Shown: positions 4,756 through 47,019, counted from the stretch's first letter. The stretch is DNA of 64,000 bases from a virus (IMGVR_UViG_3300046333_000120); one strand, 5' to 3'. Notes: generated by a model not told the origin, from the sequence alone. Translations and numbers: made by a program.

Positions 4756-5061
4756 ATGAAAACATTTGATGATTATATAAACGAAGGAAAGGTTACTATA
4801 GATAACCTAACATTTGCAATACAGACTATTGTAGATAGAAAGGGATTAGCTATAACATTTATACCTGATTCAAAAACATTAGATACAATTCATATTAATG
4901 GTAAAAACACTATTGTAGATATTATTGAAAAGAAAATGGCTAAAAGTTCTCCACTAATATCAACATGTATGTGGTTTGAAGCTGGTCATGACGCTGCAGG
5001 ATTTACGTTTAGAATTGATCCTACTGAATTAACTGACGAATTAACTAAAGCATTTAAATAA
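4756..5061 (+). CDS. small putative internal head protein with capsid-targeting-like N-terminus
   Basis: Begins MKTFDDYINE, resembling the T4 IP leader MKTYQEFIAE; late motif immediately upstream. Confidence 0.5.
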   Translation: MKTFDDYINEGKVTIDNLTFAIQTIVDRKGLAITFIPDSKTLDTIHINGKNTIVDIIEKKMAKSSPLISTCMWFEAGHDAAGFTFRIDPTELTDELTKAFK

Positions 5062-5429
5062 TGAAAACATTTTTAGATTATATTAAAGAGGAAAATATAT
5101 CCGATAAAGAATTAGCAATATTAACAGAATCTCTACAAACAGAGTGGACTGAAGAATTAGAAGCTAAAGTTGATGCTGCAATTGAAGAGTTTGCTTCAAC
5201 ATATAAAAATCTGGATGGTACTTATGATATTCATGCCTTTAATGAAGAGCTTACAAACGAAGGAGTATTAGGAAGCATATTTGGTGGATTGGCAGGTTTT
5301 GCACTTGGTAAAACTATTGGTAAAACACTGGCAAATATTCTTGGGATTACTTCAGGTATTATGTATGATATGTTAACTTCGAGATTAGTAGGAGCTGCAT
5401 TAGGTTCTTCGCTTGGTAACAAAATATAA
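5061..5429 (+). CDS. putative internal head protein with acidic N-half and C-terminal glycine zipper
   Basis: Begins MKTFLDYIKEE; LTNE|G precedes GVLGSIFGGLAGFALG...GAALGSSLG. Confidence 0.5.
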   Translation: MKTFLDYIKEENISDKELAILTESLQTEWTEELEAKVDAAIEEFASTYKNLDGTYDIHAFNEELTNEGVLGSIFGGLAGFALGKTIGKTLANILGITSGIMYDMLTSRLVGAALGSSLGNKI

Positions 5430-9284: not shown

Positions 9285-10793
9285 TTGATTTTAACATTAA
9301 CGGAAGACAATCAATTTTTAAGAATTGATGAATCAACTGAACTTGAGTTAGAGCAGATTAGAATTTCTTTAACAAAACGTATTGACTCTTGGAGATTTAA
9401 TCCTTTAGTCAAACGAGGTGTGTGGGATGGTTATGTAACATATATTAAAGATGATAAATGGATTCCTGCAGGTCTATGGCGATATGTCATGGGAATATGT
9501 AAAGACTATAGATTTGAATTAAAAATTAATGGAATCAAACGATTAATAGATCCAAATATAAATGCAGAAACATTCGAAACATGGGCATATGGCCTATTTG
9601 AAGGTTCTAAGATAACTCCAAGGGATTACCAAGTAGATGCTGCATATAATATATTAAAATTTAGAAAGTGTCTTGCTGAACTCGCAACATCAGCAGGTAA
9701 GACCCTAATTAGTTTTCTTACAATATCTTATATGCTAGAAAAAGGAACAGCATCTAAGATATTATTTATAGTACCAAACGTTTCGCTAGTAGTACAAGCA
9801 CATGAGGATTTTCATGACTATAACTTTAAAAATAGAATTGACTTAAGAATTCAACAAATTTTTGCAGGACAAAAGATCAAATCTAATAAGAATATAGTTA
9901 TTGGTACTTACCAATCGTTAATCAAAAAGGATAAAGAATATTTTGAACAATTCGATGCAGTAATTGTAGATGAAACACATAAGGCAAAATCAGCAAGTAT
10001 TAAAACGATTTTACAAAAATGTACTAATGCTAAATATAGATTTGGTCTTTCAGGTACAATTCCAAAGGATGGAACTTTAGACAAATTAACATTAATGAGT
10101 CAAACTGGTCCTGTAATTGCAGAAGTTAAAGCAAGTTTTTTACAAAAAGAAGGACACATTGCCAAATGTGCAGTTAAAGTAATTGAAATGGATTATGCAA
10201 CTGACAAGCAAAAAACAGCATTAATGGAATTAGCTCAAAATAAATATGAGAATAAAGATGTATTTGCACTAGAACAAAACTTTGTTATAAATAATGCAGC
10301 ACGACTTGATTTTATTTCAAATGTAATAGGTAGAGTACCAAAGAATAGTTTAGTACTTTTTCATAGAATAGAGCATGGTCAAAGGCTTTATGAAAAACTT
10401 AGGCAAGAAACTAATAAGAGAGTATTTTATGTAGACGGTGGAACTGCAACTGATATTAGAGAGGAATACAAAAAGAAAATGGAATCCGGAGAAGAAATTG
10501 TTATTGTTGCAAGTTATGGAACCTTTTCAACAGGTATATCAATTAAGAAAATTCATAATATATTTTTTACAGAATCTTTTAAATCTGAAGTGATAATTAG
10601 ACAATCAATTGGACGTGGACTTAGACAACATGAATCAAAGGACAAGGTATTAATTGTAGATTTTGTGGATAATATTAGAACAGTAGAATGGGATAATTAT
10701 TTGTATAGACATGGCAAAGCAAGACAAGCAATATACAAACAAGAGAAATTTGAATACACCATAAAGAAAGTCAATTTTGAAGGAGATATATAA
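9285..10793 (+). CDS. uvsW: SF2 DNA helicase, UvsW-like
   Basis: PRDYQ, ATSAGKT, VDETH, GLSGT and QSIGRGLR motifs; TTG start. Confidence 0.9.
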   Translation: MILTLTEDNQFLRIDESTELELEQIRISLTKRIDSWRFNPLVKRGVWDGYVTYIKDDKWIPAGLWRYVMGICKDYRFELKINGIKRLIDPNINAETFETWAYGLFEGSKITPRDYQVDAAYNILKFRKCLAELATSAGKTLISFLTISYMLEKGTASKILFIVPNVSLVVQAHEDFHDYNFKNRIDLRIQQIFAGQKIKSNKNIVIGTYQSLIKKDKEYFEQFDAVIVDETHKAKSASIKTILQKCTNAKYRFGLSGTIPKDGTLDKLTLMSQTGPVIAEVKASFLQKEGHIAKCAVKVIEMDYATDKQKTALMELAQNKYENKDVFALEQNFVINNAARLDFISNVIGRVPKNSLVLFHRIEHGQRLYEKLRQETNKRVFYVDGGTATDIREEYKKKMESGEEIVIVASYGTFSTGISIKKIHNIFFTESFKSEVIIRQSIGRGLRQHESKDKVLIVDFVDNIRTVEWDNYLYRHGKARQAIYKQEKFEYTIKKVNFEGDI

Positions 10794-10825: not shown

Positions 10826-12775
10826 ATGGCAGAAGTTAATAGAATCTCATCATTTAAAAGTTTTTCAGAGATTAAATCTCAAGAAAATGAAACTAAATTA
10901 AGAGAAGAAAACAATCTAAAGAAACAAGAAACACTATCTAAAATTGAAGAAATTTTAGATGAGATGGGATTAACAAATCTATCTGAAATCGATGAAGATT
11001 CTCAGACAGCTTTCATATCTAAATTGTTAGGTAAAGAAACGAATGAAGGTAATGCATTTGTATATGCTGCAGGTAAAGCTAAGGCAGATGGGAAAAAAGA
11101 ATTTGAATTTAATGGTAAAACTTATAAAGTAACTATTAAAGACACTGGCATCAAAGAAGATAATGAGATTATCGATGAAGCAATTAGCAGAAGTATATAT
11201 GATAGAATGGATGGACTTCACAATATTAAAGCTATGAAATCTTTAATTGATTCTGCGAAGACTATCTTTGATGATTTATCTGAAGAAATGTTTGAATTTG
11301 ATGAAATCTGTGATTTCATTGTAATGAAAATAAAGAAAAGTAAATTAGCAGGAATGTATGAATCTGTAAATGAAGCAAGAATTAAAGCTCCTACTGCACT
11401 TCAAGAAATTATTGATGGCAATACATCAAGAGCTGAAGGTATTAAATTATCAAAACCAATGGCTGAACATATATTGAATTGGATTAATACATCAGCGTAT
11501 GGTAAAAAGTATGGCAAAGATTTACCGTTAAACATGGTTATTAAGGCTTCATTTAGTTGGGGTATTGAAAGAGGTTTAGATCCTAAATTGAAATCTGAAT
11601 TAGATACATTAAAAGATAGTATTAAAGAATCTGTAATCAATGAAGCCAAAGTTAAGCAATTTGATGCTGACTTTAATGACATGGTTAAAAATATCAAATC
11701 AGGTTATGGTTGGATTGATCCAGAATATGTCGCAGATACTTGGGAAAATTCAAGTGACTCTGTTGATTTTGAATTAGTTAAAGGAGAAATCTACAAAAGA
11801 TTAATTGCAGCAGGTTTATTAGCATATCCAAATCCAGATGATGAAGAAAAGAAAGGTGTGCCTGTTAGAAAATTGCAAGAACTTGGTATTAAAGAATCTA
11901 TTACAAACGAAGCAACTGTTGAAGTAGATGCAACAGATCCTAAAGATAAAAACCTTGCAAAACTATTAAAGAAACATAAAGTTTCGTTGGAAGTAATCAA
12001 TAAAAATGGACCATCCGGATGGCCTGAAGTTAAATTAACAGGAGATATTAAAGATCTTAAAGCAGTTTTAGCAGATTCTGAATATGGATGGGATGATGAA
12101 GGCTTAGCAGATTATATTGAAGAATCAGTAGTTAATGAAGCTGAGAAATTTAAAAGTACTAAAGACTTTGAAGATTTCTTAGAAGAAATTGATGGTATGC
12201 CAGAGAACAGAATCAAAAGAATCATGGGTAAAGATTATATCGATACTCCAGGTGGATATAGAGATGAAGCTGATGATTATGATAACGATATTACAGAATA
12301 CATGATTTCTAACATGGGTAAATCTGATTTTAATGAACTTAAAACATGGTGGGAAACCAATGTTGCTGAATCATTTATTAGTGAATCAAGTATGGGAGAA
12401 ATCGATCAAATGGCACAAGATGCTAAAGATTTCAAATCATTTGTAAAAGAATTTACAAAAAAATACCATGATTTATCCAATACAGGAGAACCTGGACAAT
12501 TTAAAGAATGGTTACAATCTGCTTATGATGCAGCAAAAGAAAACATGGATGAATCATCAGTTACTGAAGCTGAAGTTAGTTCTGATGATGAATTTAAAGA
12601 ATATGCAATGGCTGTTTTGAAAAAAGCATTTGGAGAAGACTTTGATGAAGCTAAGGCTGGTGAAGTAGTTGATGGAATTCTTAAAAAATGTGATGGAGAC
12701 TATGGCGCATGTGTTGGAATGCTAACAAGTTCTCTTGGAGAATCGAATGATACCACATCATCTCAAGAATCTTAA
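10826..12775 (+). CDS. multidomain putative internal head polyprotein (649 aa)
   Basis: About 9 unrelated 45-90 aa segments separated by ES-x-x-(N/S/T)E|A linkers; late motif at 10785. Confidence 0.6.
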   Translation: MAEVNRISSFKSFSEIKSQENETKLREENNLKKQETLSKIEEILDEMGLTNLSEIDEDSQTAFISKLLGKETNEGNAFVYAAGKAKADGKKEFEFNGKTYKVTIKDTGIKEDNEIIDEAISRSIYDRMDGLHNIKAMKSLIDSAKTIFDDLSEEMFEFDEICDFIVMKIKKSKLAGMYESVNEARIKAPTALQEIIDGNTSRAEGIKLSKPMAEHILNWINTSAYGKKYGKDLPLNMVIKASFSWGIERGLDPKLKSELDTLKDSIKESVINEAKVKQFDADFNDMVKNIKSGYGWIDPEYVADTWENSSDSVDFELVKGEIYKRLIAAGLLAYPNPDDEEKKGVPVRKLQELGIKESITNEATVEVDATDPKDKNLAKLLKKHKVSLEVINKNGPSGWPEVKLTGDIKDLKAVLADSEYGWDDEGLADYIEESVVNEAEKFKSTKDFEDFLEEIDGMPENRIKRIMGKDYIDTPGGYRDEADDYDNDITEYMISNMGKSDFNELKTWWETNVAESFISESSMGEIDQMAQDAKDFKSFVKEFTKKYHDLSNTGEPGQFKEWLQSAYDAAKENMDESSVTEAEVSSDDEFKEYAMAVLKKAFGEDFDEAKAGEVVDGILKKCDGDYGACVGMLTSSLGESNDTTSSQES

Positions 12776-12841: not shown

Positions 12842-14128
12842 ATGAAATCAAAAATCCTTAATTTTAATCAGTTTTTAACTGAAAAATACGAAGTAAGATT
12901 AAATGAACAACTCCTATTAGAAGGAGGTGCTGCAGGACATATGTCTCATCCATTTGATGAAAGAGACCTTACATTTAGTGACTTTAAGAAAATAATCGAA
13001 GCAGGTCTTTCGGGAGATTTAACATTTGAAGAAGATCCAACTGAAAAAACAGATGGACAGAATGTCTTTGCTACTGTCCAAGATGGTCAAGTTAAATTTG
13101 CAAGAAATAAAACTGAACTTAAGAATCCAATGGATCTTAATACATTTAAACAGAAATTTACAGGACATCCAAGCAAAATGGTTGAAGAGACATTTCAATT
13201 TGCTGCAGAAGATTTAGCACATGCACTTATTAAATTGTCAGCCAAAGATTTAGAAGCATTTGATAATGGTAAGAATTTCATGAATATGGAGCTTATATAT
13301 TCTAAGAATCCTAATGTTATTTATTACGATAGAGACATCATACAGTTTCATGGGATTAAAATAACTGACGGTGAGGGTAATATTATCGGAGATGATAATA
13401 AATATGCTAGATCTATTGCAAAGGCCTTAGAAGATGTCAAGGCACACATAGGAAAGGTATTTACTATTATTCCTCCACAAATTATCAAGATAGGTAAGGA
13501 TATAGATTTTAATATTAATAAATCCAAATTTATTAAAAAGGTAGAAGACTTAAAGAATCGTTATAAATTAACAGATGCCGATGAGGTTTCTAAATATCAT
13601 GAAATGTGGTGGAGAGAATTAATAGACCAAAATTTCCCAGATTTAACACAGGATTTTAAAGAAGGTTTATTATTAAGATGGGCATATGATGATAAGAAAA
13701 CTCTTAATTTAAGAAGTTTAGATAAAGAACTTGGAAAAGATAAAGCAGAACTTATTAAGAAGTTTGATAAAGAAGATGTTAAAAAGAAATATAAAGAAAA
13801 CATTAGACCATTTGAGGATTTATTTCTTGAATTAGGAAGTGTTATCTTAAAGAATGCAAGTAACTTTGTTGCTGCAAACCCAAAGGCAGAAATGCAAAGA
13901 TTACATACCCAGATTAGAACAGAAGCTGAAAATATTAAATTGAATGGTGATACTGCTCAAATTGATAAAGTAATGTCAGAGCTTGAAAGACTTGATAGAA
14001 TTGGAGGTATTGAATCAATTATTCCTACTGAAGGTATTGTATTTGTTTACAAAGGAAAAACTATGAAACTTACAGGTACATTTGCTGCCATCAATCAATT
14101 AATGGGTATCATTAAGTATGGTAGATAA
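12842..14128 (+). CDS. ATP-dependent ligase-like nucleotidyltransferase (RNA ligase/capping superfamily) with capsid-targeting-like leader
   Basis: Motif I EKTDGQN, motif III-like NMELIY, motif IV EGIVF, motif V MKLT. Leader MKSKILNFNQFLTE...LLLE|GG. Confidence 0.6.
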   Translation: MKSKILNFNQFLTEKYEVRLNEQLLLEGGAAGHMSHPFDERDLTFSDFKKIIEAGLSGDLTFEEDPTEKTDGQNVFATVQDGQVKFARNKTELKNPMDLNTFKQKFTGHPSKMVEETFQFAAEDLAHALIKLSAKDLEAFDNGKNFMNMELIYSKNPNVIYYDRDIIQFHGIKITDGEGNIIGDDNKYARSIAKALEDVKAHIGKVFTIIPPQIIKIGKDIDFNINKSKFIKKVEDLKNRYKLTDADEVSKYHEMWWRELIDQNFPDLTQDFKEGLLLRWAYDDKKTLNLRSLDKELGKDKAELIKKFDKEDVKKKYKENIRPFEDLFLELGSVILKNASNFVAANPKAEMQRLHTQIRTEAENIKLNGDTAQIDKVMSELERLDRIGGIESIIPTEGIVFVYKGKTMKLTGTFAAINQLMGIIKYGR

Positions 14129-14146: not shown

Positions 14147-14464
14147 ATGAAATATACACAAGCGTTTGAATCATTTATTAATGAAGCTACTGATAAACCA
14201 ACTTTAGATTCTTCAACTGGATTAATCTATTACTTCGATATTCCTTTCACATCAGAAGATATGGAAGAATTATTAAGTGCAAGTAAAATGGTATTAAATG
14301 GAAAATTTACTCCAAATAAACAGTTTGAAATCCAACCGATGATTTTTATTAAAGATAAAGTTAATGGTGGAGAACATACATTTAGTGTTACACAAATTGG
14401 ATTATTAGGCTCTTTTTATAATAAGAACAAAGACAGTGTTGCATCTAGATCAGATTTCAATTAA
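14147..14464 (+). CDS. small putative internal head protein
   Basis: Begins MKYTQAFESFINE|A; GATAAATAA at 14124. Confidence 0.5.
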   Translation: MKYTQAFESFINEATDKPTLDSSTGLIYYFDIPFTSEDMEELLSASKMVLNGKFTPNKQFEIQPMIFIKDKVNGGEHTFSVTQIGLLGSFYNKNKDSVASRSDFN

Positions 14465-14479
14465 TATAATTTAATAAAA

Positions 14480-16375
14480 ATGGCATTACAAAAATTAAGA
14501 GAGTATTTTAACGAAACCAATAGAGAAAATTTTATTGAAATGTTAAAAAGTAGGGTGTTAGTGACTGAAAAGATTGCAGCACCATCTTTTCTTTTTAAAA
14601 GAAATACAGATGGATTTGAGTTTTATAAGTCTTCAACATCAGATAAATTAAATTTTATTGATAGAACAGTTATATCACTATATGAAATGGCAATTAATCA
14701 TTTACAGAGTTTACCAAGCGATGTAAAATCTCAGTTTCCATTAGATTGGAAATTTGGATTTGAATATTTACCAGAAACCAAAGCGTCTAATATAGATTAT
14801 GCCACAACTCCAACCAATAGTTTAATTCTTACACACATTCAACAATTGAGTGAAGGTGGAAAACTTAGAAAAACTATTAATGATCCATTAATTTTAAATA
14901 AATGGGCTAAATTATTAGAAGTGCAATCTCCCAGTGTTATTTTTGATGGTTATATGTCACAACAACAAAGAGATGAACTTCTAACCGTATTATCAATGAG
15001 TGATAGAGAATTCTCAGATTCATTTGATTACGCAATAGAAACTGAAGATAAAACAAGTTTCACTTCAAAGATATTTAAGATGTTTAATCCAAATATCTAT
15101 TCAACTGCACTAAATCCAGATCTTGAAACTGAAATTGATGGATTAGTTATAAACTTCATAGAAGCAAAAACAATGAAGTCATTTAAACTTGAAGATTTTT
15201 TAAGAGCTTCCGCTGATAAAAGAGATTTAAGAGCTTCTAGCCATACTTACCAAATTGCTGTAACTGATTTCTTAGAGTATATCATACAGCAAGATCTGAA
15301 CGATATTAATTTAGAAGATGAACATGCCGATCATAGATACTTAGAATTAATGTCAGTTTTATTTAATGGATATATTGATAAAAATTCTTCAAAATATATT
15401 GGTGTTAATTTTGAAAGTGCAGAATTTTCAGAAGCACAATCATTTAGATTAAATACCAAATATATTAAAAATGAAAAAACATTAAAATTTGTAAATAATG
15501 AAGTACTTGCTGAATTATTTAAAATGGTTTTAAGTTCTTTTAGAAAGAAAAGAACTAAAGAATCAGACTTAATTGACAAAGATACAATGTCAAGAATGAA
15601 TGAAATTATTGATGCAATTAATGAAAAGATATTTGTAGAAAATACAGATGAAAATGCAATATACGATTATACTAATTTTATGTTACATAATAAGATTAAA
15701 TCTTCAGTAAATTTAAATGAAGCTCTTACAGTAAAACACATGGAACAAGGTAAACAACCCGTAAATATGTTTGTTGGTAGATTTCAACCATTCACATTAG
15801 GGCACGCTAAGGTATTAGAAACAATGAATAAGGAAAATGGATTTCCAGTAGTTGTATTTTTAGTTAAATCTAAGGTTAAAAAGGGCGAGGAGTTTAGTAA
15901 ACCATACGATGAAAAAACACAAGTTGATATGTTTAATCATGTCAAAAAACAATATCCTTTTTTAAAGGAAATATATGTTGTTCCTAATGCTGCAATCGAT
16001 ACATTATATAATGAGATGAGACCGAAATATGAACCAGTATTATGGGGAACAGGATCTGATAGAATGAAAGGATATGGATATATGGTTAATAATGATTCTT
16101 ATAGAGACCAATTAAATGCTAGGGCAGATTTTGGATTATTTGAGATTCCAAGAACAGACGATAATATTTCAGCAACCAAGGTTAGAAACGCAATGTTAGA
16201 TGGAAATGAAAAAGATTTTCAGACAATGACACCTAAAGCTATTCATGGAATGTATAAAGAATTAAAGTCAAAATTAGAAGATGCTATTGGAGTTGTTCAC
16301 GAAAATATTGAAAATTCAGAAGAAATCATGACATTTGAACAATTCATAAATAAATCTAAATATATAATCTTATAA
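14480..16375 (+). CDS. two-domain protein: degenerate ligase-like N-domain plus HxGH-family (cytidylyl/NMN-adenylyl) nucleotidyltransferase
   Basis: C-domain has VGRFQPFTLGH, GTGSDR and ISATKVR. N-domain has VTEKI and EIDGLVI, which resemble ligase motifs I and IV but lack the KxDG Asp-Gly. Confidence 0.65.
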   Translation: MALQKLREYFNETNRENFIEMLKSRVLVTEKIAAPSFLFKRNTDGFEFYKSSTSDKLNFIDRTVISLYEMAINHLQSLPSDVKSQFPLDWKFGFEYLPETKASNIDYATTPTNSLILTHIQQLSEGGKLRKTINDPLILNKWAKLLEVQSPSVIFDGYMSQQQRDELLTVLSMSDREFSDSFDYAIETEDKTSFTSKIFKMFNPNIYSTALNPDLETEIDGLVINFIEAKTMKSFKLEDFLRASADKRDLRASSHTYQIAVTDFLEYIIQQDLNDINLEDEHADHRYLELMSVLFNGYIDKNSSKYIGVNFESAEFSEAQSFRLNTKYIKNEKTLKFVNNEVLAELFKMVLSSFRKKRTKESDLIDKDTMSRMNEIIDAINEKIFVENTDENAIYDYTNFMLHNKIKSSVNLNEALTVKHMEQGKQPVNMFVGRFQPFTLGHAKVLETMNKENGFPVVVFLVKSKVKKGEEFSKPYDEKTQVDMFNHVKKQYPFLKEIYVVPNAAIDTLYNEMRPKYEPVLWGTGSDRMKGYGYMVNNDSYRDQLNARADFGLFEIPRTDDNISATKVRNAMLDGNEKDFQTMTPKAIHGMYKELKSKLEDAIGVVHENIENSEEIMTFEQFINKSKYIIL

Positions 16376-16391
16376 AATAAAATTAAAATAA

Positions 16392-18500
16392 ATGAGCACA
16401 TTTGATAAATATCTAAATGACATGAATAATACGTTAAATGAGAGGTCAATTAACAAAATTCAAGCAGAATTTACAGATGTAGTAACTAAAATGTCAGCAA
16501 TGGCAAAAGAATATGCTACTACAGAAGGAGATGAAAAAACAAATATTCTTACAGAATTAAAAGGATTAACTGCAAAGAAAAATGAGTTAATAAAGGAACT
16601 CGATAATGCAGTAGCAGGAAAGGATAAAGATGTCCAATTAGCTATTAAAGAATCTGAAATTAATGAAGCATATGGAAGCTCTAATCCTCATGCAAAACCA
16701 GCGGGTCTTGATAAAGAAGAAACTATGGTTATAGCTCAAAAATTTGCAGATGCAATGTCTAAAGCAGAAGGAGCTAAAGTTACTGTAAATAAAAGAACAT
16801 TAGAGGAAGATTCATTTGATTTAGATTACAATGGAGAAGAATTTGATGGAGGTTCATATAACATCTACCAAAATGGAAATGTTATGAATATGGCATTAAG
16901 AGATAATCCAGTATATGGTAGAAAAAACGATAGTGTAGATACTATTGCAAAGAATATGAAAAAATTCATGAGCGAATCAGTAGCTAATGAAGGTAGACAT
17001 ATTACTCTTAAAAGACAATACACTGGAAACCATCCTGCAACCACCGTTGGAAAAATTGCAGCTGTTAGAAATAAAGTGTTAGAGGCAATTAAAGATGGTA
17101 AAATACCACAAGAACAATTTGAAAAAATAGTTTCTGAAATTTCTAATAACTCTAAAAGATGGACAAAAAATAACTCAAAATATTTTACAATATCAGAAGA
17201 CGGTGTTTCACTTTCTGGTTTTGGTAAAAAAGTACTTTCAAGTATAACAGTTAATGAAGCAGATTTTAAAGAATTTCCAAAAGGTTATAATCCAGAAATA
17301 TGGGTACCTGGTAATTTTGATAAAGCTATTTCCAAATATTCAAATGCAAAATTAACTAGAAAAATTGTATTGGATGCTGCTAAAAAATGGGATGTTACAC
17401 CCGAAGATGCTATTAATTATGTAGAATTTGGATGGCATGTAGATTTATCAGAAAATATAAATATAAATATAAATATGAAAACAAAATTTATTTACGAATC
17501 ATTTAGCGAATTCATTGGAGCTTTAAATGAATCTAATGAAATATTAAATGAAGCATTTGCTTCTACAAAACTTGCAAGTCTTTTAACAGGCGCAAATGCA
17601 ATGCCAAAGGATCTTCCTGCTGCATTCTATAATATGTCAAAATTAGCTCTTGACAAAATTCAAGACATTGATATTCTAGAAATGACACCAGATCAAGCAA
17701 AGAAAGAAAAAAGAACAAAGGCAATTTATTTATATTTTACAACAAATGAAAAAGAAAACCCATATGCGGGTAGCCGCTCCGGAGCAGCAAATGCATTAAT
17801 CCCATCAAACACATTATTAGCTATCACTGATGGTTCTAATGAATGGATGAATACTGAATGGACTAGAAAATTTACCAGTAAATCATCAAAAACTTTGAAA
17901 ACTACAAAAAGAGATGATTCCGCTGGATTTAGTAAATCAGGAGCAAGCGATCAATATGGTACTGGTATTTCAAGTATGAAACAAGTTGCTGAACTTGCAG
18001 ATAGAGCATATTGCTTAGACCTTACCATTTTGCAAGCAAGATATTCTACACAAAATCTTAAAGATGAAAGAGATGCTGCAAGAAAAGGTGCTACTGCATT
18101 CATGAATGATAAGGAATTTAAAGCTGAAAACAAAGCAAGGTACAATGATATTTTAGCAACTAAAGCATCATCAATGCCAATGGATTCTGTAGTTTCAGGT
18201 GCTATCGATACTCTTTCTTTACAGATTAAAAACGCAATAGCTAAAGGTGAAAAAGGAAGATATGGAGATCTTTTAATTGGATTAGATCCACGCGGAAAAG
18301 AAGTTAAACTATCAGATGCTTCTAATTTAATGAGAAATATTTTAGATACCTATTCAAGATATGTTGGAGATGTTGCTAATGATGAAAAAGAAAAAGCAGC
18401 AGGATATACTGGAAATTATTATGCAGGTAGTTTAAAAAACCATGCAAAAGATATACAGGACAATGTTAAAAAAATAGATACACTAAGTTACGGTTGGTAA
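16392..18500 (+). CDS. multidomain putative internal head polyprotein (702 aa)
   Basis: Leader MSTFDKYLND...TLNE; linkers ESEINE|A, ESVANE|G, ITVNE|A and EILNE|A; a second internal leader at 17475. Confidence 0.55.
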   Translation: MSTFDKYLNDMNNTLNERSINKIQAEFTDVVTKMSAMAKEYATTEGDEKTNILTELKGLTAKKNELIKELDNAVAGKDKDVQLAIKESEINEAYGSSNPHAKPAGLDKEETMVIAQKFADAMSKAEGAKVTVNKRTLEEDSFDLDYNGEEFDGGSYNIYQNGNVMNMALRDNPVYGRKNDSVDTIAKNMKKFMSESVANEGRHITLKRQYTGNHPATTVGKIAAVRNKVLEAIKDGKIPQEQFEKIVSEISNNSKRWTKNNSKYFTISEDGVSLSGFGKKVLSSITVNEADFKEFPKGYNPEIWVPGNFDKAISKYSNAKLTRKIVLDAAKKWDVTPEDAINYVEFGWHVDLSENINININMKTKFIYESFSEFIGALNESNEILNEAFASTKLASLLTGANAMPKDLPAAFYNMSKLALDKIQDIDILEMTPDQAKKEKRTKAIYLYFTTNEKENPYAGSRSGAANALIPSNTLLAITDGSNEWMNTEWTRKFTSKSSKTLKTTKRDDSAGFSKSGASDQYGTGISSMKQVAELADRAYCLDLTILQARYSTQNLKDERDAARKGATAFMNDKEFKAENKARYNDILATKASSMPMDSVVSGAIDTLSLQIKNAIAKGEKGRYGDLLIGLDPRGKEVKLSDASNLMRNILDTYSRYVGDVANDEKEKAAGYTGNYYAGSLKNHAKDIQDNVKKIDTLSYGW

Positions 18501-19463: not shown

Positions 19464-19829
19464 ATGCCAAGTACTAGTATAGCGCAACAGCATCTAATGG
19501 GTATGGCATATTCTCTTAAAAAAGGAGAAATGGATCCTAAAGATGCAAGTCAAGAAGTAAAGGATCTTTCAGATTCTATGACACTTCAACAATTAAAGGA
19601 TTTTGCAAGTACAAAACATGAAGGACTTCCAAAGAAGGCAGATGAAGGAGTTTCTTCTGAAAGCATTGGAGGTATGGGAGCGACTTTATTGCCTACTGCA
19701 ACTCAACCAGGATCTGGGGATGTTCTATCAGGGGCAGGTGATGCAGAAGAGGAATACAAGAAAAAGAAAAGAAAGCGAGAAGGTATGTTAAAAACCTTTG
19801 AACAGTTTATAAATGAACAATATAATTAA
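19464..19829 (+). CDS. DUF3008-like protein with C-terminal targeting-like motif
   Basis: MPSTSIAQQHLMGMA...SMTLQQLKDFASTKHEGLP matches the DUF3008 pattern; ends MLKTFEQFINEQYN. Confidence 0.6.
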   Translation: MPSTSIAQQHLMGMAYSLKKGEMDPKDASQEVKDLSDSMTLQQLKDFASTKHEGLPKKADEGVSSESIGGMGATLLPTATQPGSGDVLSGAGDAEEEYKKKKRKREGMLKTFEQFINEQYN

Positions 19830-38422: not shown

Positions 38423-38446
38423 GATATATAAAAATAAAAGATATCA

Positions 38447-39303: not shown

Positions 39304-40065
39304 ATGACAACTAACATTCTTGCACCATTCGCAAAAGTAGAAGAGTCTTTTCAATTTTATGTAAATGGAAGAGTCTTTGAAATGAATAACAATGAAATTA
39401 AGGAAGTTGAAGTTTTAACTAACTCAACACTAATCAATGCTATTAATGCATTTGAATCTTTTGAATTTTCTAATGATTCTATTAAATGGTTCCATGGACC
39501 AAGTAAATTTATTTACAATTTAATAGAAAGTAAATTCCAACATAACACTATGTTAATTGAAGGAAGCACATTCTCAAATCATGTTTTAGCAGCAGGATTG
39601 GTAAGATATAATGAAAAAGCAAAGGCTGATTTATTTGAATCTATTCCATCATTACTTGAAAATTTTGTAAATTTAGATTTTGCAGCATCATTCAAAGGAA
39701 ATAATATTAATGTAGAATTATTTAAAATTGAAGAATCTATATTTGTTGCTCGTCTTAATAATGAAACAAGAATTTCTAAATTCTTTAAGGCTGTAAATGC
39801 AAATGAAGCATTAGAGTATGTAATGAATGAAACTGGTGAATCAGCACATTCTTTCTTAAAATCTTTATTAGAAGGAGAAGAAGCTGGTATTGCTGAAAAA
39901 CAAGAAAAAATTGAAACCTACGAATCAATGATTGCTTTCTTAAAAGACCAAAAAGGTTTATTATCTGAGTCAGATAGAAATCATGAGATAATTAAAGAAG
40001 CTGAAGGGTTAATTAATACTGAAATTAAAGAATGGGAATCTAAAATTGCAGATTTAAATGCATAA
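39304..40065 (+). CDS. hypothetical late protein
   Basis: 253 aa ORF with late motif at 39273 and a C-terminal coiled coil. Confidence 0.6.
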   Translation: MTTNILAPFAKVEESFQFYVNGRVFEMNNNEIKEVEVLTNSTLINAINAFESFEFSNDSIKWFHGPSKFIYNLIESKFQHNTMLIEGSTFSNHVLAAGLVRYNEKAKADLFESIPSLLENFVNLDFAASFKGNNINVELFKIEESIFVARLNNETRISKFFKAVNANEALEYVMNETGESAHSFLKSLLEGEEAGIAEKQEKIETYESMIAFLKDQKGLLSESDRNHEIIKEAEGLINTEIKEWESKIADLNA

Positions 40066-43698: not shown

Positions 43699-45447
43699 AT
43701 GACTAAAAACTTACTGATCCTAGAAAGATCGTCTACGGAGTTAGAGTTTAAACAAGATGGTGGGACCTATGTTCTAGAAGGTATCTTTGGAGAAATCGAT
43801 AAGAAAAATCGTAATAACCGAATTTATACAGAAGATGAGTATCTTCCACAGATTGAAGCTCTACAGGCAAAAATTAAATCTTCAAAATTATTAGGTGAAT
43901 TAGACCACCCAAGTAACTTTGATGTTTCGCTTAAAAATGTTTCGCATATCATCGAAGAACTTACTTATGATAAAGATACTAAACAAGTTAAAGGACGTAT
44001 TCGATTACTAGATACGGATGCTGGAAGACAGGCAAAAGCTCTTGTTGATGCGGGAGTTCCTTTACAAATTTCAAGTAGAGCTGCAGGCGCAGTTGAATCT
44101 AATGGAACTGTAAAAATCAAACAATTATTTACTTATGATTTAGTGGCAGATCCTGGGTTTGAGAATGCTGAATTAAAAAGAGTTAATGAGTCTTATGGAT
44201 TTATTAATGAAGGAAACGACCTATTTATTTACGAGATAAATAATACAAATGAAAAACAAACAATCGAAAATATAAACGAAACAAAAATGGCAGAGTCAAA
44301 ATTCATTACGACCGAGGATTTTAACAAGTACTCTAAATATCTTTCTGAAGAAATTAAATCTATTAAAGAAGGTATGAATTCTTTAACAGAATCAGAGTCA
44401 AACAGTTCTCAATTAGAATCATTAAAAGAATACACAGATTATTTAGCTAAGAAATTAGATGAATCAATTACATATTCAGAACACATTGCTGAAAAAGCAG
44501 ATCAAGGTATTGCTTACTCAGAAAAACTTGCTGAAACTATGGATAATTCTATTCAATATTCAGAGCACATCGCAGAAAGTGTTGAAGCTATTAAAAACTA
44601 CACTAACTATTTAGCTGAATCTTATAATGAAGGTTCTACTTCTTATGATAACTTAATTAAATATACTGAATATTTAAGAGAGAACTTAGAGAAAGTAACT
44701 GAATATGCTGAATATGTTGCAGAAACTGTAAACTCTAACTTATTATTAGAAGATGAAGCAGGTATTCCAGCTGAAGATATTAAAGATGAAACTGAAGATG
44801 TTTCTCCTGATGTAGTTGATGCGGATGGTAATAAATATGATTCTGAAGAAGTTGAAAATAAAGAAGGTGACTTAGAGCTTAAAGGTGAAGGTGATGCTGC
44901 TGGTAAAGACGTTGATGCTATGGAAGCTTACAAAAATTCAATCTCTTCTAAATTAGAAGCATTAGTTGAAAAAGTTAACGCTAAGAAAAATGAAGGACCA
45001 ACATTCTTTAAATTTATTTCTGAAGAAAAGGTAAATGAATTTAATTCATTAAATGAAGAAGAAAAAACTAAAATTGTAAATGCAATTGAAGGTAAAGGTT
45101 ATTTAACAGAAGGACAAATCCTAGGATTATGGGCTAATTCATTAATGGGTGCAGTTCAAACACCAAGTACTCTTCCTGTTATTTCAATGATGCCTACTGA
45201 ATACCATTCAACTTGGACTAAATTATCTGAAGGTAAAAAACACCAAATAATGGCACAAGCTAAAATGGTTAAATTAGAAACAGCATATCAAGTTGCAAAC
45301 TTCTGGCAAACAAGAGACCTTAGAGAATCTGCTCCAGTTTTAGAAAAAATATCAATGATTAATGAAGCTGCTCCAGTAGAAGTTAAAACTATTGGATATG
45401 ATACTACTGATATTGCAGAACAAATTGCAAAAAGATTTAAAAAATAA
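43699..45447 (+). CDS. prohead protease (gp21-like) fused to scaffold (gp22-like)
   Basis: KNRNNRIY, GELDHP, ISSRAAG and YDLVADPGF in the first ~165 aa, followed by a helical region with YxExxAE repeats. Confidence 0.88.
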   Translation: MTKNLLILERSSTELEFKQDGGTYVLEGIFGEIDKKNRNNRIYTEDEYLPQIEALQAKIKSSKLLGELDHPSNFDVSLKNVSHIIEELTYDKDTKQVKGRIRLLDTDAGRQAKALVDAGVPLQISSRAAGAVESNGTVKIKQLFTYDLVADPGFENAELKRVNESYGFINEGNDLFIYEINNTNEKQTIENINETKMAESKFITTEDFNKYSKYLSEEIKSIKEGMNSLTESESNSSQLESLKEYTDYLAKKLDESITYSEHIAEKADQGIAYSEKLAETMDNSIQYSEHIAESVEAIKNYTNYLAESYNEGSTSYDNLIKYTEYLRENLEKVTEYAEYVAETVNSNLLLEDEAGIPAEDIKDETEDVSPDVVDADGNKYDSEEVENKEGDLELKGEGDAAGKDVDAMEAYKNSISSKLEALVEKVNAKKNEGPTFFKFISEEKVNEFNSLNEEEKTKIVNAIEGKGYLTEGQILGLWANSLMGAVQTPSTLPVISMMPTEYHSTWTKLSEGKKHQIMAQAKMVKLETAYQVANFWQTRDLRESAPVLEKISMINEAAPVEVKTIGYDTTDIAEQIAKRFKK

Positions 45448-45618: not shown

Positions 45619-47019
45619 ATGGCAAATTTAATCAATGAATCAGAAATCAGAGCAACATGGTCTCCGATTATCGAATCTGCGACAGGAATCAACGACGCTA
45701 GCAAATTAGCTTGGATGTCAGAATACTGTCACAATCACAAATTATATGAAGATGCATCTACAATGTCTTTAGGACTTGCAGGAAATATCTTTGGTATGGG
45801 AGCAACTACATTACCTTCTGCAATTGGTGCAGGTGGAGTTTCTACTGTAAATGGTTCTGGAGATAAATCTCCTTCATTATTACCTTTAGCAATGCAAGTT
45901 GCTGCACAAACTGTAGGTTTAGATTTAGTACCTGTAGTTCCTATGGCTGGACCAATGGGATTATTATCTTATTTAGACTTCGTTTATGAAGGTGGTAAAG
46001 TAGCTGGTTCTACTGCTCCAACCTATATTAAAACATCTTTAGCTGTTGATGCTGCTGATACTTTAGTAGGTACTTCAAGAATTGATGGTAAAAATATAGT
46101 AAAAGTAAGTGCTGCAACTGAAGCTGCTGGTGTTATTACTGATACTTATGCTGATGCAGAATTAGTAAAAGCATTAGAAGATCACATTAAAGGATTTGTA
46201 GCTGCAGACAACGCAGGTAACCCATTCTCAAGAGAAGCAGGTGAACAAACTCCAGACAAAGTAATGGGTCTTTCTTTATTCTCTAAATCAGTTTCAGCTG
46301 AAACTTTCCAAGTTGCTGCTGCTGTAACAAGAGAACAAGTTCAAGATTTAAAACAATTCGGAGTTGACGCTGTTGCTCAAGTTGAAGCTGTTTTAACTAA
46401 TGAATTAACTCAATCAATTAATCAATACATCTTAGGCAGATTAAGAACGTTAGGTACAACTAACATTACTAATGCTTTCGGTGCATCTACTGATTTCGAT
46501 TTAGAATTAGATGCTGCTGCATCATTAACAGGTGGTGAAACTTTACCATCAGTTCACAGAAGAATTTTATCTCAAGTATTAGCTGCTGCTAACTTAATTG
46601 CTAACAGAGGTAGAAGAGGTGCTGGTAACTTCGCTGTAGTTGGACCACAAACTGCAACTGTATTACAGTCAATCGCTGGATTCATTGCTAACCCAATGGC
46701 TAACACATTCGCACAAGCTGCTGGAGCTATCTATCCATTAGGATCTGTTGCAGGTATTAATATCTACACTGACCCAACAATGAACTGGGGAGATTATTCA
46801 GTAACTGTAGGTAGAAAAGGTGACGGAAACGGACCAGGTGTTGTATTTATGCCTTACTTAATGGCTGAATCAGTTCAAACAATCGCTGAAGGAACTATGG
46901 CTCCTAAAGTTGCTGTTAAATCTAGATTCGCATTAGTTGATGCAGGTTTCCACCCAGAAACTCAATATGTTACATTCGCAGTAACTGGAACATGGACTAA
47001 CTTATTAACATTAGCTTAA
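45619..47019 (+). CDS. major capsid protein, T4 gp23-like
   Basis: WSPIIE, DLVPVVPMAGP, QDLKQ, RGRRGAGNF and FMPY motifs; strong codon bias. Confidence 0.92.
   Translation: MANLINESEIRATWSPIIESATGINDASKLAWMSEYCHNHKLYEDASTMSLGLAGNIFGMGATTLPSAIGAGGVSTVNGSGDKSPSLLPLAMQVAAQTVGLDLVPVVPMAGPMGLLSYLDFVYEGGKVAGSTAPTYIKTSLAVDAADTLVGTSRIDGKNIVKVSAATEAAGVITDTYADAELVKALEDHIKGFVAADNAGNPFSREAGEQTPDKVMGLSLFSKSVSAETFQVAAAVTREQVQDLKQFGVDAVAQVEAVLTNELTQSINQYILGRLRTLGTTNITNAFGASTDFDLELDAAASLTGGETLPSVHRRILSQVLAAANLIANRGRRGAGNFAVVGPQTATVLQSIAGFIANPMANTFAQAAGAIYPLGSVAGINIYTDPTMNWGDYSVTVGRKGDGNGPGVVFMPYLMAESVQTIAEGTMAPKVAVKSRFALVDAGFHPETQYVTFAVTGTWTNLLTLA

Follow-up and report, generated by a model that had tools for sequence, protein, structure and literature searches.

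Introduction

In the capsid targeting sequence (CTS) of phage T4, residues 4 and 7 serve targeting and residues 8 and 10 serve processing, and Asp at position 10 blocks cleavage (PMC9026906). Targeting to the prohead is probably the task of the propeptides in giant phages (PMC5694885, PMC10052503). For polyvalent proteins it has been proposed that they accompany the incoming DNA and are freed by proteolysis, so that several counter-defence options are on offer together (Iyer et al. 2017, PMC5512222). The PeSLs of T4-type phages flank small non-essential open reading frames (ORFs), and the internal-protein loci have been noted as similarly variable (PMC2839356). The present analysis concerns a stretch of 64,000 nucleotides (nt) of viral DNA, IMGVR_UViG_3300046333_000120, referred to at its full length as the window, and within it an ORF at 10826–12775 that encodes a polyprotein of small domains joined by a recurring linker. 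The window is part of a T4-like phage carried on a 142-kb contig, with nearly all genes on the + strand and a GC content of about 30%.

Virion-delivered proteins are the phage products that first meet host defences, and apart from those of T4 and a few giant phages they are difficult to identify. It is firmly established by the comparisons below that the polyprotein is an array of independent cassettes, that its linker is a conserved functional element, the same as that which ends the leaders of single-module proteins, and that the linkers are the exact points where cassettes have been added, removed, reordered and exchanged. Beyond this, the simplest account, and one more likely than not, is that the array enters the prohead by way of its constant N-terminal piece and is cut there by the prohead protease, the module-sized proteins staying in the head and being injected.

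The polyprotein and its linkers

The initial annotation had described the ORF with eight linkers, and both are real, every linker being found at the nucleotide given for it. Linkers 1 to 4 lie at amino acids (aa) 71, 111, 179 and 268 (nt 11036, 11156, 11360 and 11627) and linkers 5 to 8 at aa 357, 433, 515 and 576 (nt 11894, 12122, 12368 and 12551). The segments S1 to S9 are delimited by Glu 74, 118, 183, 273, 362, 438, 520 and 581, as follows.

10826–12775, + strand: cassette polyprotein ORF, an open frame of 649 aa, 73 kDa, isoelectric point (pI) 4.6
10826–11047, + strand: S1, aa 1–74, constant N-terminal helical head piece
11048–11179, + strand: S2, aa 75–118, small and beta-containing, with one to four tandem copies in relatives
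11180–11374, + strand: S3, aa 119–183, helical, linker E-S-V-N-E|A at its end
11375–11644, + strand: S4, aa 184–273, helical, the sole basic module (pI 8.9)
11645–11911, + strand: S5, aa 274–362, three helices and a beta hairpin, weakly winged-helix-like
11912–12139, + strand: S6, aa 363–438, alpha/beta, matching phrog_5922
12140–12385, + strand: S7, aa 439–520
12386–12568, + strand: S8, aa 521–581, helical, rare in relatives
12569–12775, + strand: S9 with the stop codon, aa 582–649, helical and very acidic

The strict linker motif, E-[ST]-x(1,2)-[NTS]-E followed by A, G or S, occurred six times in the ORF when 0.08 occurrences were expected from 2000 residue shuffles of it, the maximum in any shuffle being two. 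The looser T4-type motif h-x-E|small was found 12 times against 3.5 expected. Judged by sequence motif, seven of the eight linkers fit the pattern of a hydrophobic P3, Glu at P1 and a small P1'. Beyond the linker tails there was no significant similarity among S1 to S9, which agrees with the earlier description of the segments as mutually unrelated. In S1 the string I-S-S-F-K-S-F-x-E (aromatic-x-x-aromatic-x-E) is nearly invariant, and by analogy with the T4 CTS (PMC9026906) S1 is a candidate targeting region.

Leaders and stand-alone modules

Many short relatives of the polyprotein consist of one module only, a leader of 13–14 aa being followed immediately by residue 1 of S4, S5 or S7, and in these stand-alone modules the end of the leader coincides exactly with the end of a linker. 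The leader has the form M-K-x-x-I-x-T-F-E-x-F-h-N-E (examples are P0138, P0173, P0182, P0183 and P0194; S4 stands alone in P0182 and P0195, and S5 in P0183). The small genes that adjoin the polyprotein carry the same leaders, in the window as in relatives, and the leader signature that had initially been seen as shared between them was found in neighbours 4756, 5061, 14147 and 19078 and in the ligase-like gene at 12842. The genes of immediate concern are these.

4756–5429, + strand: two small genes, first ten residues M-K-T-aromatic-x-x-aromatic-I-x-E (the T4 CTS pattern)
14147–14464, + strand: single-module gene, CTS-like leader ending F-E-S-F-I-N-E|A, a form identical to the internal linkers
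16392–18500, + strand: second polyprotein gene, 702 aa, with the same linkers and trading cassettes with the first

Some leaders of the lineage equal the T4 CTS at 7 of 10 positions, with both aromatics in the same places (T4 sequence from PMC8442874). The feature of a targeting leader, that is the aromatics at T4 positions 4 and 7 together with the processing positions, is present both in the neighbouring genes and in the stand-alone module copies.

The residues upstream of 354 distinct module starts gave a consensus that is independent of which module precedes: P1 was Glu in 97%, P3 was V, L or I in 88%, P2 was Asn in 58% and P6 was Glu in 55%, and P1' was Ala or Gly in 90% of the same number of distinct junctions. 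The N-terminal leaders have Phe at P7 and P4; these aromatics are absent from the internal linkers, in which P1, P2, P3, P5 and P6 are kept. With the aromatics confined to the leaders and just the processing positions left in the linkers, the internal linker thus corresponds to the processing half of the leader minus its targeting half, a division that agrees with the genetics of the T4 CTS (PMC9026906). This pattern would be expected if tandem leader-bearing genes had fused and selection had then kept cleavage alone. The reading frame of the second polyprotein gene passes without a break through an (AATATA)n run with TATAAATA (17453–17530), after which come an ATG in the same frame and a whole CTS-like leader; this looks like the relic of a gene fusion or else an internal promoter with a restart.

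Leaders or sites of this kind were also seen on enzymes. The ligase-like protein (12842–14128), which has a K-x-D-G motif, starts with a CTS-like leader, and in the 631-aa neighbour at 14480–16375 V-N-L-N-E|A stands just ahead of a cytidylyltransferase/NMNAT-like domain (PF01467); by virtue of these, both enzymes may also be head cargo or protease substrates.

Relatives and module families

A word-indexed search gave 638 long relatives, spanning 356–1136 aa, among the 8000 best-scoring candidates, with 246 shorter ones besides, and in an exhaustive HMMER search 1052 clusters at 50% identity matched the ORF, 599 of them at E 1e-10 or better. Architecture was compared by BLAST of S1 to S9 in 120 long relatives, and 120 short relatives were also examined; in both sets the segments acted as discrete cassettes. 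Segment matches in the long relatives started and stopped at linkers. S1 was first in nearly all of them and S2 came next, in one to four copies, while S9 was near-universal and mostly close to the C-terminus, where an 81–83-aa terminal module that the window copy does not have follows it in most relatives. Both the S5–S7 and the S7–S5 orders were found, as were S6–S9 and S9–S6; S6 was sometimes located near the N-terminus, S7 sometimes occurred twice, and unrelated modules were interleaved. The initial annotation had predicted that the segments would occur singly or in different orders with breakpoints at the linkers, and had named invariant colinear homologues as one finding that would speak against it. 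The segments were found stand-alone, reordered and variable in copy number with breakpoints at linkers, and the architecture is far from colinear.

When 131 long proteins were split at the motif and the pieces clustered, about 50 module families of 35–115 aa were obtained; the clustering was run on single-module-sized pieces, as unsplit multi-module pieces bridge families into one single-linkage cluster. No match to the ORF was obtained by tblastn in 50,697 deposited phage genomes, Pfam gave nothing significant for the ORF and ten long relatives, and PHROGs gave for the ORF a sole match, that of S6 to phrog_5922, an 85-aa phage family of unknown function. The modules may have remote homology to described families.

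Recent cassette exchange

One relative, L084, is 98% identical to the window over gp32, UvsW, the ligase-like gene and the nucleotidyltransferase gene, and differs from it in four places. Its first polyprotein has no S7, has an extra 53-aa module between S8 and S9, and ends in an additional module of 81 aa, joined on its left by a linker, and its second polyprotein has an extra 60-aa module. Base-by-base reading of the three internal cases places the change of homology precisely between the codon of the linker Glu and the codon that follows it, and for the absence of S7 the breakpoints lie at both flanking E| junctions. In another relative, L085, which is 90% identical, the S7 cassette together with both its linkers is found inside the second polyprotein gene, at 89% identity.

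In the DNA the linkers amount to imperfect direct repeats, 19–35 nt long and 67–95% identical. DNA microhomology between linkers, and cassette shuffling through it, had been proposed initially. The repeats are indeed present, but they are largely set by the peptide motif and AT-rich codon use, and hence are no independent evidence of a signal at the DNA level. As to shuffling, the cassette insertions and deletions do break exactly at the linker DNA; the repeats may promote recombination, or selection may merely retain linker-joined products. Every module ends in one short coding motif, so that recombination, insertion or deletion at linkers would give in-frame and still-processable products, by which a lineage can add, drop, duplicate and reorder modules, and modules can move between the two polyprotein genes and the single-module genes.

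Predicted structure

AlphaFold2 was run on the full ORF with an alignment of 71 sequences, and the full-length model had a mean pLDDT of 65.8 and a pTM of 0.26. All eight linkers were in, or at most three residues from, stretches with pLDDT below 50, and such stretches make up 24% of the chain. The suggested check on whether linkers fall inside folded domains thus came out in favour of the array: in the predicted model they lie between confidently folded units and not within them. A model of S4 and S5 together reached pLDDT 86.5 and pTM 0.52. Comparison of S5 with winged-helix domains in a VIA-align wide search gave weak hits with Z at most 5.1, which is a lead and no assignment. Foldseek found no match at E 0.001 or better for the whole model against PDB or for the S4 and S5 model against BFVD, and a look-up of S9 in the ESM Atlas gave unnamed viral clusters alone, below a useful score. 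No module has a known fold or family assignment.

Head proteins with the same motif

A protease of suitable type is encoded in the window between the portal and capsid genes.

41665: portal gene
43699–45447, + strand: gp21-type (Peptidase_S77) prohead protease with a long scaffold-like tail (PF03420, E 4e-12)
45619–47019, + strand: gp23-like major capsid gene

The N-terminal domain of ORF 43699 was aligned with the T4 gp21 structure 5jbl by phmmer at E 8e-5. Conservation of the protease and the capsid was taken from IMG/VR loci, and in 81 protease-scaffold sequences from these relatives two linker-motif sites are nearly invariant. The first, V-N-E|S, comes right after the protease domain (aa 162–165), and the second, V/I-N-E|S/A, lies about 25 residues from the C-terminus (aa 554–557). 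The two conserved sites fit the C-terminal self-processing known in this protease family (PMC5694885, PMC9026906). Of the sites that had initially been listed for this protein, R-V-N-E|S and M-I-N-E|A are accordingly conserved and F-I-N-E|G is not.

The L-I-N-E|S that had been pointed out in the capsid is present here, but in just 59 of 79 relatives. A second site, I-I-E|S at residues 18–21, is found in 75 of the 79 and may, judging from this conservation, be the true maturation site. The capsid (45619–45700; loci L004–L083) does not have a long propeptide of the T4 style, and in 20/79 relatives its first seven residues are without the Glu of the putative site. The closest deposited relative of the capsid is that of an uncultured 462-kb phage, with 51% identity, followed by Lak phages with 38%.

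The T4-type motif is densest in the polyprotein, the tail of the protease-scaffold protein and ORF 39304. This last ORF (39304–40065, 253 aa) has the top density of h-x-E|small in the window, with 8 sites or 3.2 per 100 aa, and has no Pfam or PHROG match; with a ATATATAA element ahead of it, it is a candidate prohead core or scaffold protein.

Genomic setting and promoter-like elements

Homologues of gp32 and UvsW lie upstream of the polyprotein ORF. In the genomes compared, the polyprotein gene follows directly after UvsW every time in an otherwise syntenic frame, and its length at this locus varies, being 584, 643, 649, 700 or 1029 aa. At the end of the cargo-gene cluster a DUF3008 protein is encoded (19464–19829; PF11450, E 3e-10), which is found in the same place in L001 and L003. 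An ORF with a NUMOD3 domain, probably a homing endonuclease, is located upstream of gp32 in L085 (533–1222) and is not in the window.

The polyprotein start is preceded by a promoter-like element.

10786–10793, + strand: ATATATAA, late-promoter-like element 40 nt upstream of the polyprotein start

Twenty copies of ATATATAA were found on the + strand, 16 of them 11–45 nt upstream of gene starts and a seventeenth 120 nt upstream of the capsid. The element precedes the portal, the protease and other structural genes, both polyprotein genes and the leader-bearing gene 4756, a distribution from which it would be taken to act as a promoter. Two promoter-like signatures were observed window-wide (for example at 38424, 41635, 43667, 57202 and 59808), one of them being (G)ATATATAA; GAAAC-N(15–24)-TATAAT-like sites stand about 45–60 nt before other genes (20199, 22047, 30031, 40142, 48812 and 60439). 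Gene starts have no Shine-Dalgarno sequences and lie in A-rich leaders.

Proposed processing and delivery of the array

The explanation put forward for the ORF is that it would be a cassette-array precursor of head cargo, in which a constant S1 is followed by a variable string of independently folding modules of 45–90 aa, and the linker, E-S-h-h-N-E and then A or G, would be the processing half of a T4-type CTS with its hydrophobic P3, Glu at P1 and small P1'. The polyprotein gene would be expressed together with the head genes, and the N-terminal region would carry the whole chain into the prohead core. There the gp21-type protease (43699) would cut after each linker Glu and give about nine mini-proteins of 5–10 kDa, which would remain in the head and, in the manner of T4 internal proteins, pass into the host along with the DNA. 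The initial annotation had likewise inferred one targeting event and release of the mini-proteins by the head protease, a reading that is supported in part. Cleavage, packaging and injection are what we infer from these comparisons, as is any effector or anti-defence role; the two pointers to a role in anti-defence or host takeover are the analogy with T4 IPI and the pace of diversification.

In its widest form the proposal is more tentative. The polyprotein genes might constitute a protein-level cassette array for injected mini-proteins, an 'integron without integrase', in which the motif would be scissile site, leader remnant and recombination joint at once. One head piece would load an arbitrary and quickly reshuffled set chosen from dozens of families of mini-effectors, with exchange among the two arrays and the single-module genes across a large environmental clade. 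This is considered possible rather than probable.

Several observations weigh against the head-cargo explanation. The N-terminus of the polyprotein has no canonical leader with a cleavage site, just aromatic-x-x-aromatic-x-E at residues 10–15 with non-canonical spacing, and the first linker, E-T-N-E|G between S1 and S2, has Thr at P3, where Leu is found in most relatives. Eight of the nine modules are acidic, whereas T4 internal proteins are basic. In the S4 and S5 model one helix runs through the S4|S5 linker with the pLDDT dipping to just 64, which means that some linkers may be helical instead of exposed loops. The N-terminal L-I-N-E|S site of the capsid is missing in a quarter of the relatives, and ATATATAA also precedes some non-structural genes. 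Finally, the polyprotein gene lies outside the head module amid replication-type genes (gp32, UvsW and the ligase-like gene); T4 internal-protein genes are likewise located outside the head module.

Alternative explanations

A disposable scaffold or core component, acidic like T4 gp22, gp67 and gp68 and cut at many points, whose pieces would leave the prohead before DNA packaging and whose modules would be spacers, is an unlikely explanation of the polyprotein. It is in keeping with a protein that is acidic overall (pI 4.6) and in which h-x-E|small sites are about as dense as in the protease-scaffold protein and ORF 39304, and proteins of the T4 core are cut into several pieces, which then leave the head (PMC9026906, PMC5694885). 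Scaffold and core genes are, however, conserved core genes of T4-like phages (PMC9026906), and the conserved, stable architecture expected of a gene such as that of gp22, gp67 or gp68 is not found in the polyprotein: genomes whose flanks are 98% identical have different sets of modules in it, drawn from about 50 families, and relatives are 395–1116 aa long. The modules are moreover confidently folded 5–10-kDa units in the predicted models and are encoded singly behind leaders as T4 internal proteins are, and the protease already bears a separate scaffold-like tail.

The linker motif also ends the 13–14-aa leaders of single-module proteins, in which a spacer would have no purpose, and it keeps its 97% Glu at P1 and small P1' whichever modules flank it. 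It is in addition the known specificity of the family to which the protease of the same genome belongs, and recurs at conserved sites in that protease. These features make it improbable that the polyprotein stays uncleaved as beads on a string, with linkers as helix-capping or spacer motifs and the intact chain as a multivalent binder in head or cytoplasm, which the continuous helix modelled by AlphaFold over at least one linker would favour.

There is likewise only a small chance of an unpackaged cytoplasmic polyprotein from which the phage protease before assembly, or another Glu-specific protease, releases host-takeover proteins in the producing cell: the locus among early or middle-type replication genes would agree with it, as would a leader or site on enzymes that are not necessarily virion cargo (the ligase-like 12842, and 14480 ahead of its nucleotidyltransferase domain), but the leaders copy the T4 CTS position by position (PMC8442874, PMC9026906), the prohead protease is the sole protease of matching specificity found in the window and in T4 acts inside assembled proheads (PMC5694885), and the promoter-like element is common to head genes.

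The stand-alone copies with leaders and the hypervariability fit all three alternatives less well than they fit a precursor of head cargo. The grammar of leader, module and linker flags dozens of candidate head-cargo families in an abundant uncultured T4-like clade, and these have been reassorted within very short spans of evolution. Should cleavage and delivery prove true, the array would be a new way for a double-stranded DNA phage to encode and diversify an injected arsenal, and would provide a catalogue of mini-proteins to screen against defence systems and a natural design for loading multiple cargoes into T4-type capsids from one construct.

Comparison with known systems

In the literature no description was found of cargo polyproteins with cleavage-site linkers as cassette joints, and the array is read here as a variant of the T4 internal-protein system. 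In T4 the gp21-processed proteins IPI, IPII, IPIII and Alt have leaders like those of this lineage, with aromatics three apart, then I/L/V-x-E and a small residue (PMC8442874), and in both systems a protease of the gp21 family is encoded by the same phage. The T4 internal proteins are, like the candidate cargo here, small (about 8–20 kDa), diverse and non-conserved, with genes outside the head module, and their loci are hypervariable between related phages (PMC2839356, PMC9026906). T4 cargo, however, is encoded as one protein per gene with one cut, whereas up to a dozen units are fused here by linkers that have the processing half alone. T4 internal proteins vary by gene replacement and the present modules by in-frame cassette exchange within the gene; these modules are mostly acidic, and none of them resembles IPI, IPII or IPIII.

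Polyvalent proteins also combine many unrelated domains (2–15) in one polypeptide with highly variable architectures (PMC5512222). They have recognisable enzymatic or DNA-binding domains and often a peptidase of their own, whereas no Pfam domain (query and ten long relatives) and no embedded peptidase were found here, the domains are mini-domains, and release would need a separate prohead protease acting at a uniform linker. In giant phages (phiKZ, 201phi2-1 and SPN3US) some inner-head proteins are cut after Glu in more than one place by a protease related to gp21 (PMC5694885, PMC10052503). There the multiple cuts fall inside long N-terminal propeptides, and once these are lost a single mature protein remains; the cleavage motif is A/S/G-x-E, and cassette shuffling at the cleavage sites is not described.

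The shuffling of PeSLs in T4-type hyperplastic regions is similar to the present exchange in that short repeats serve as joints for insertion, deletion and replacement between close relatives (PMC2839356). PeSLs are intergenic promoter/terminator cassettes by which whole genes are moved, whereas the joints of the polyprotein are coding linkers of about 20 nt inside an ORF, and what is moved is a protein module.

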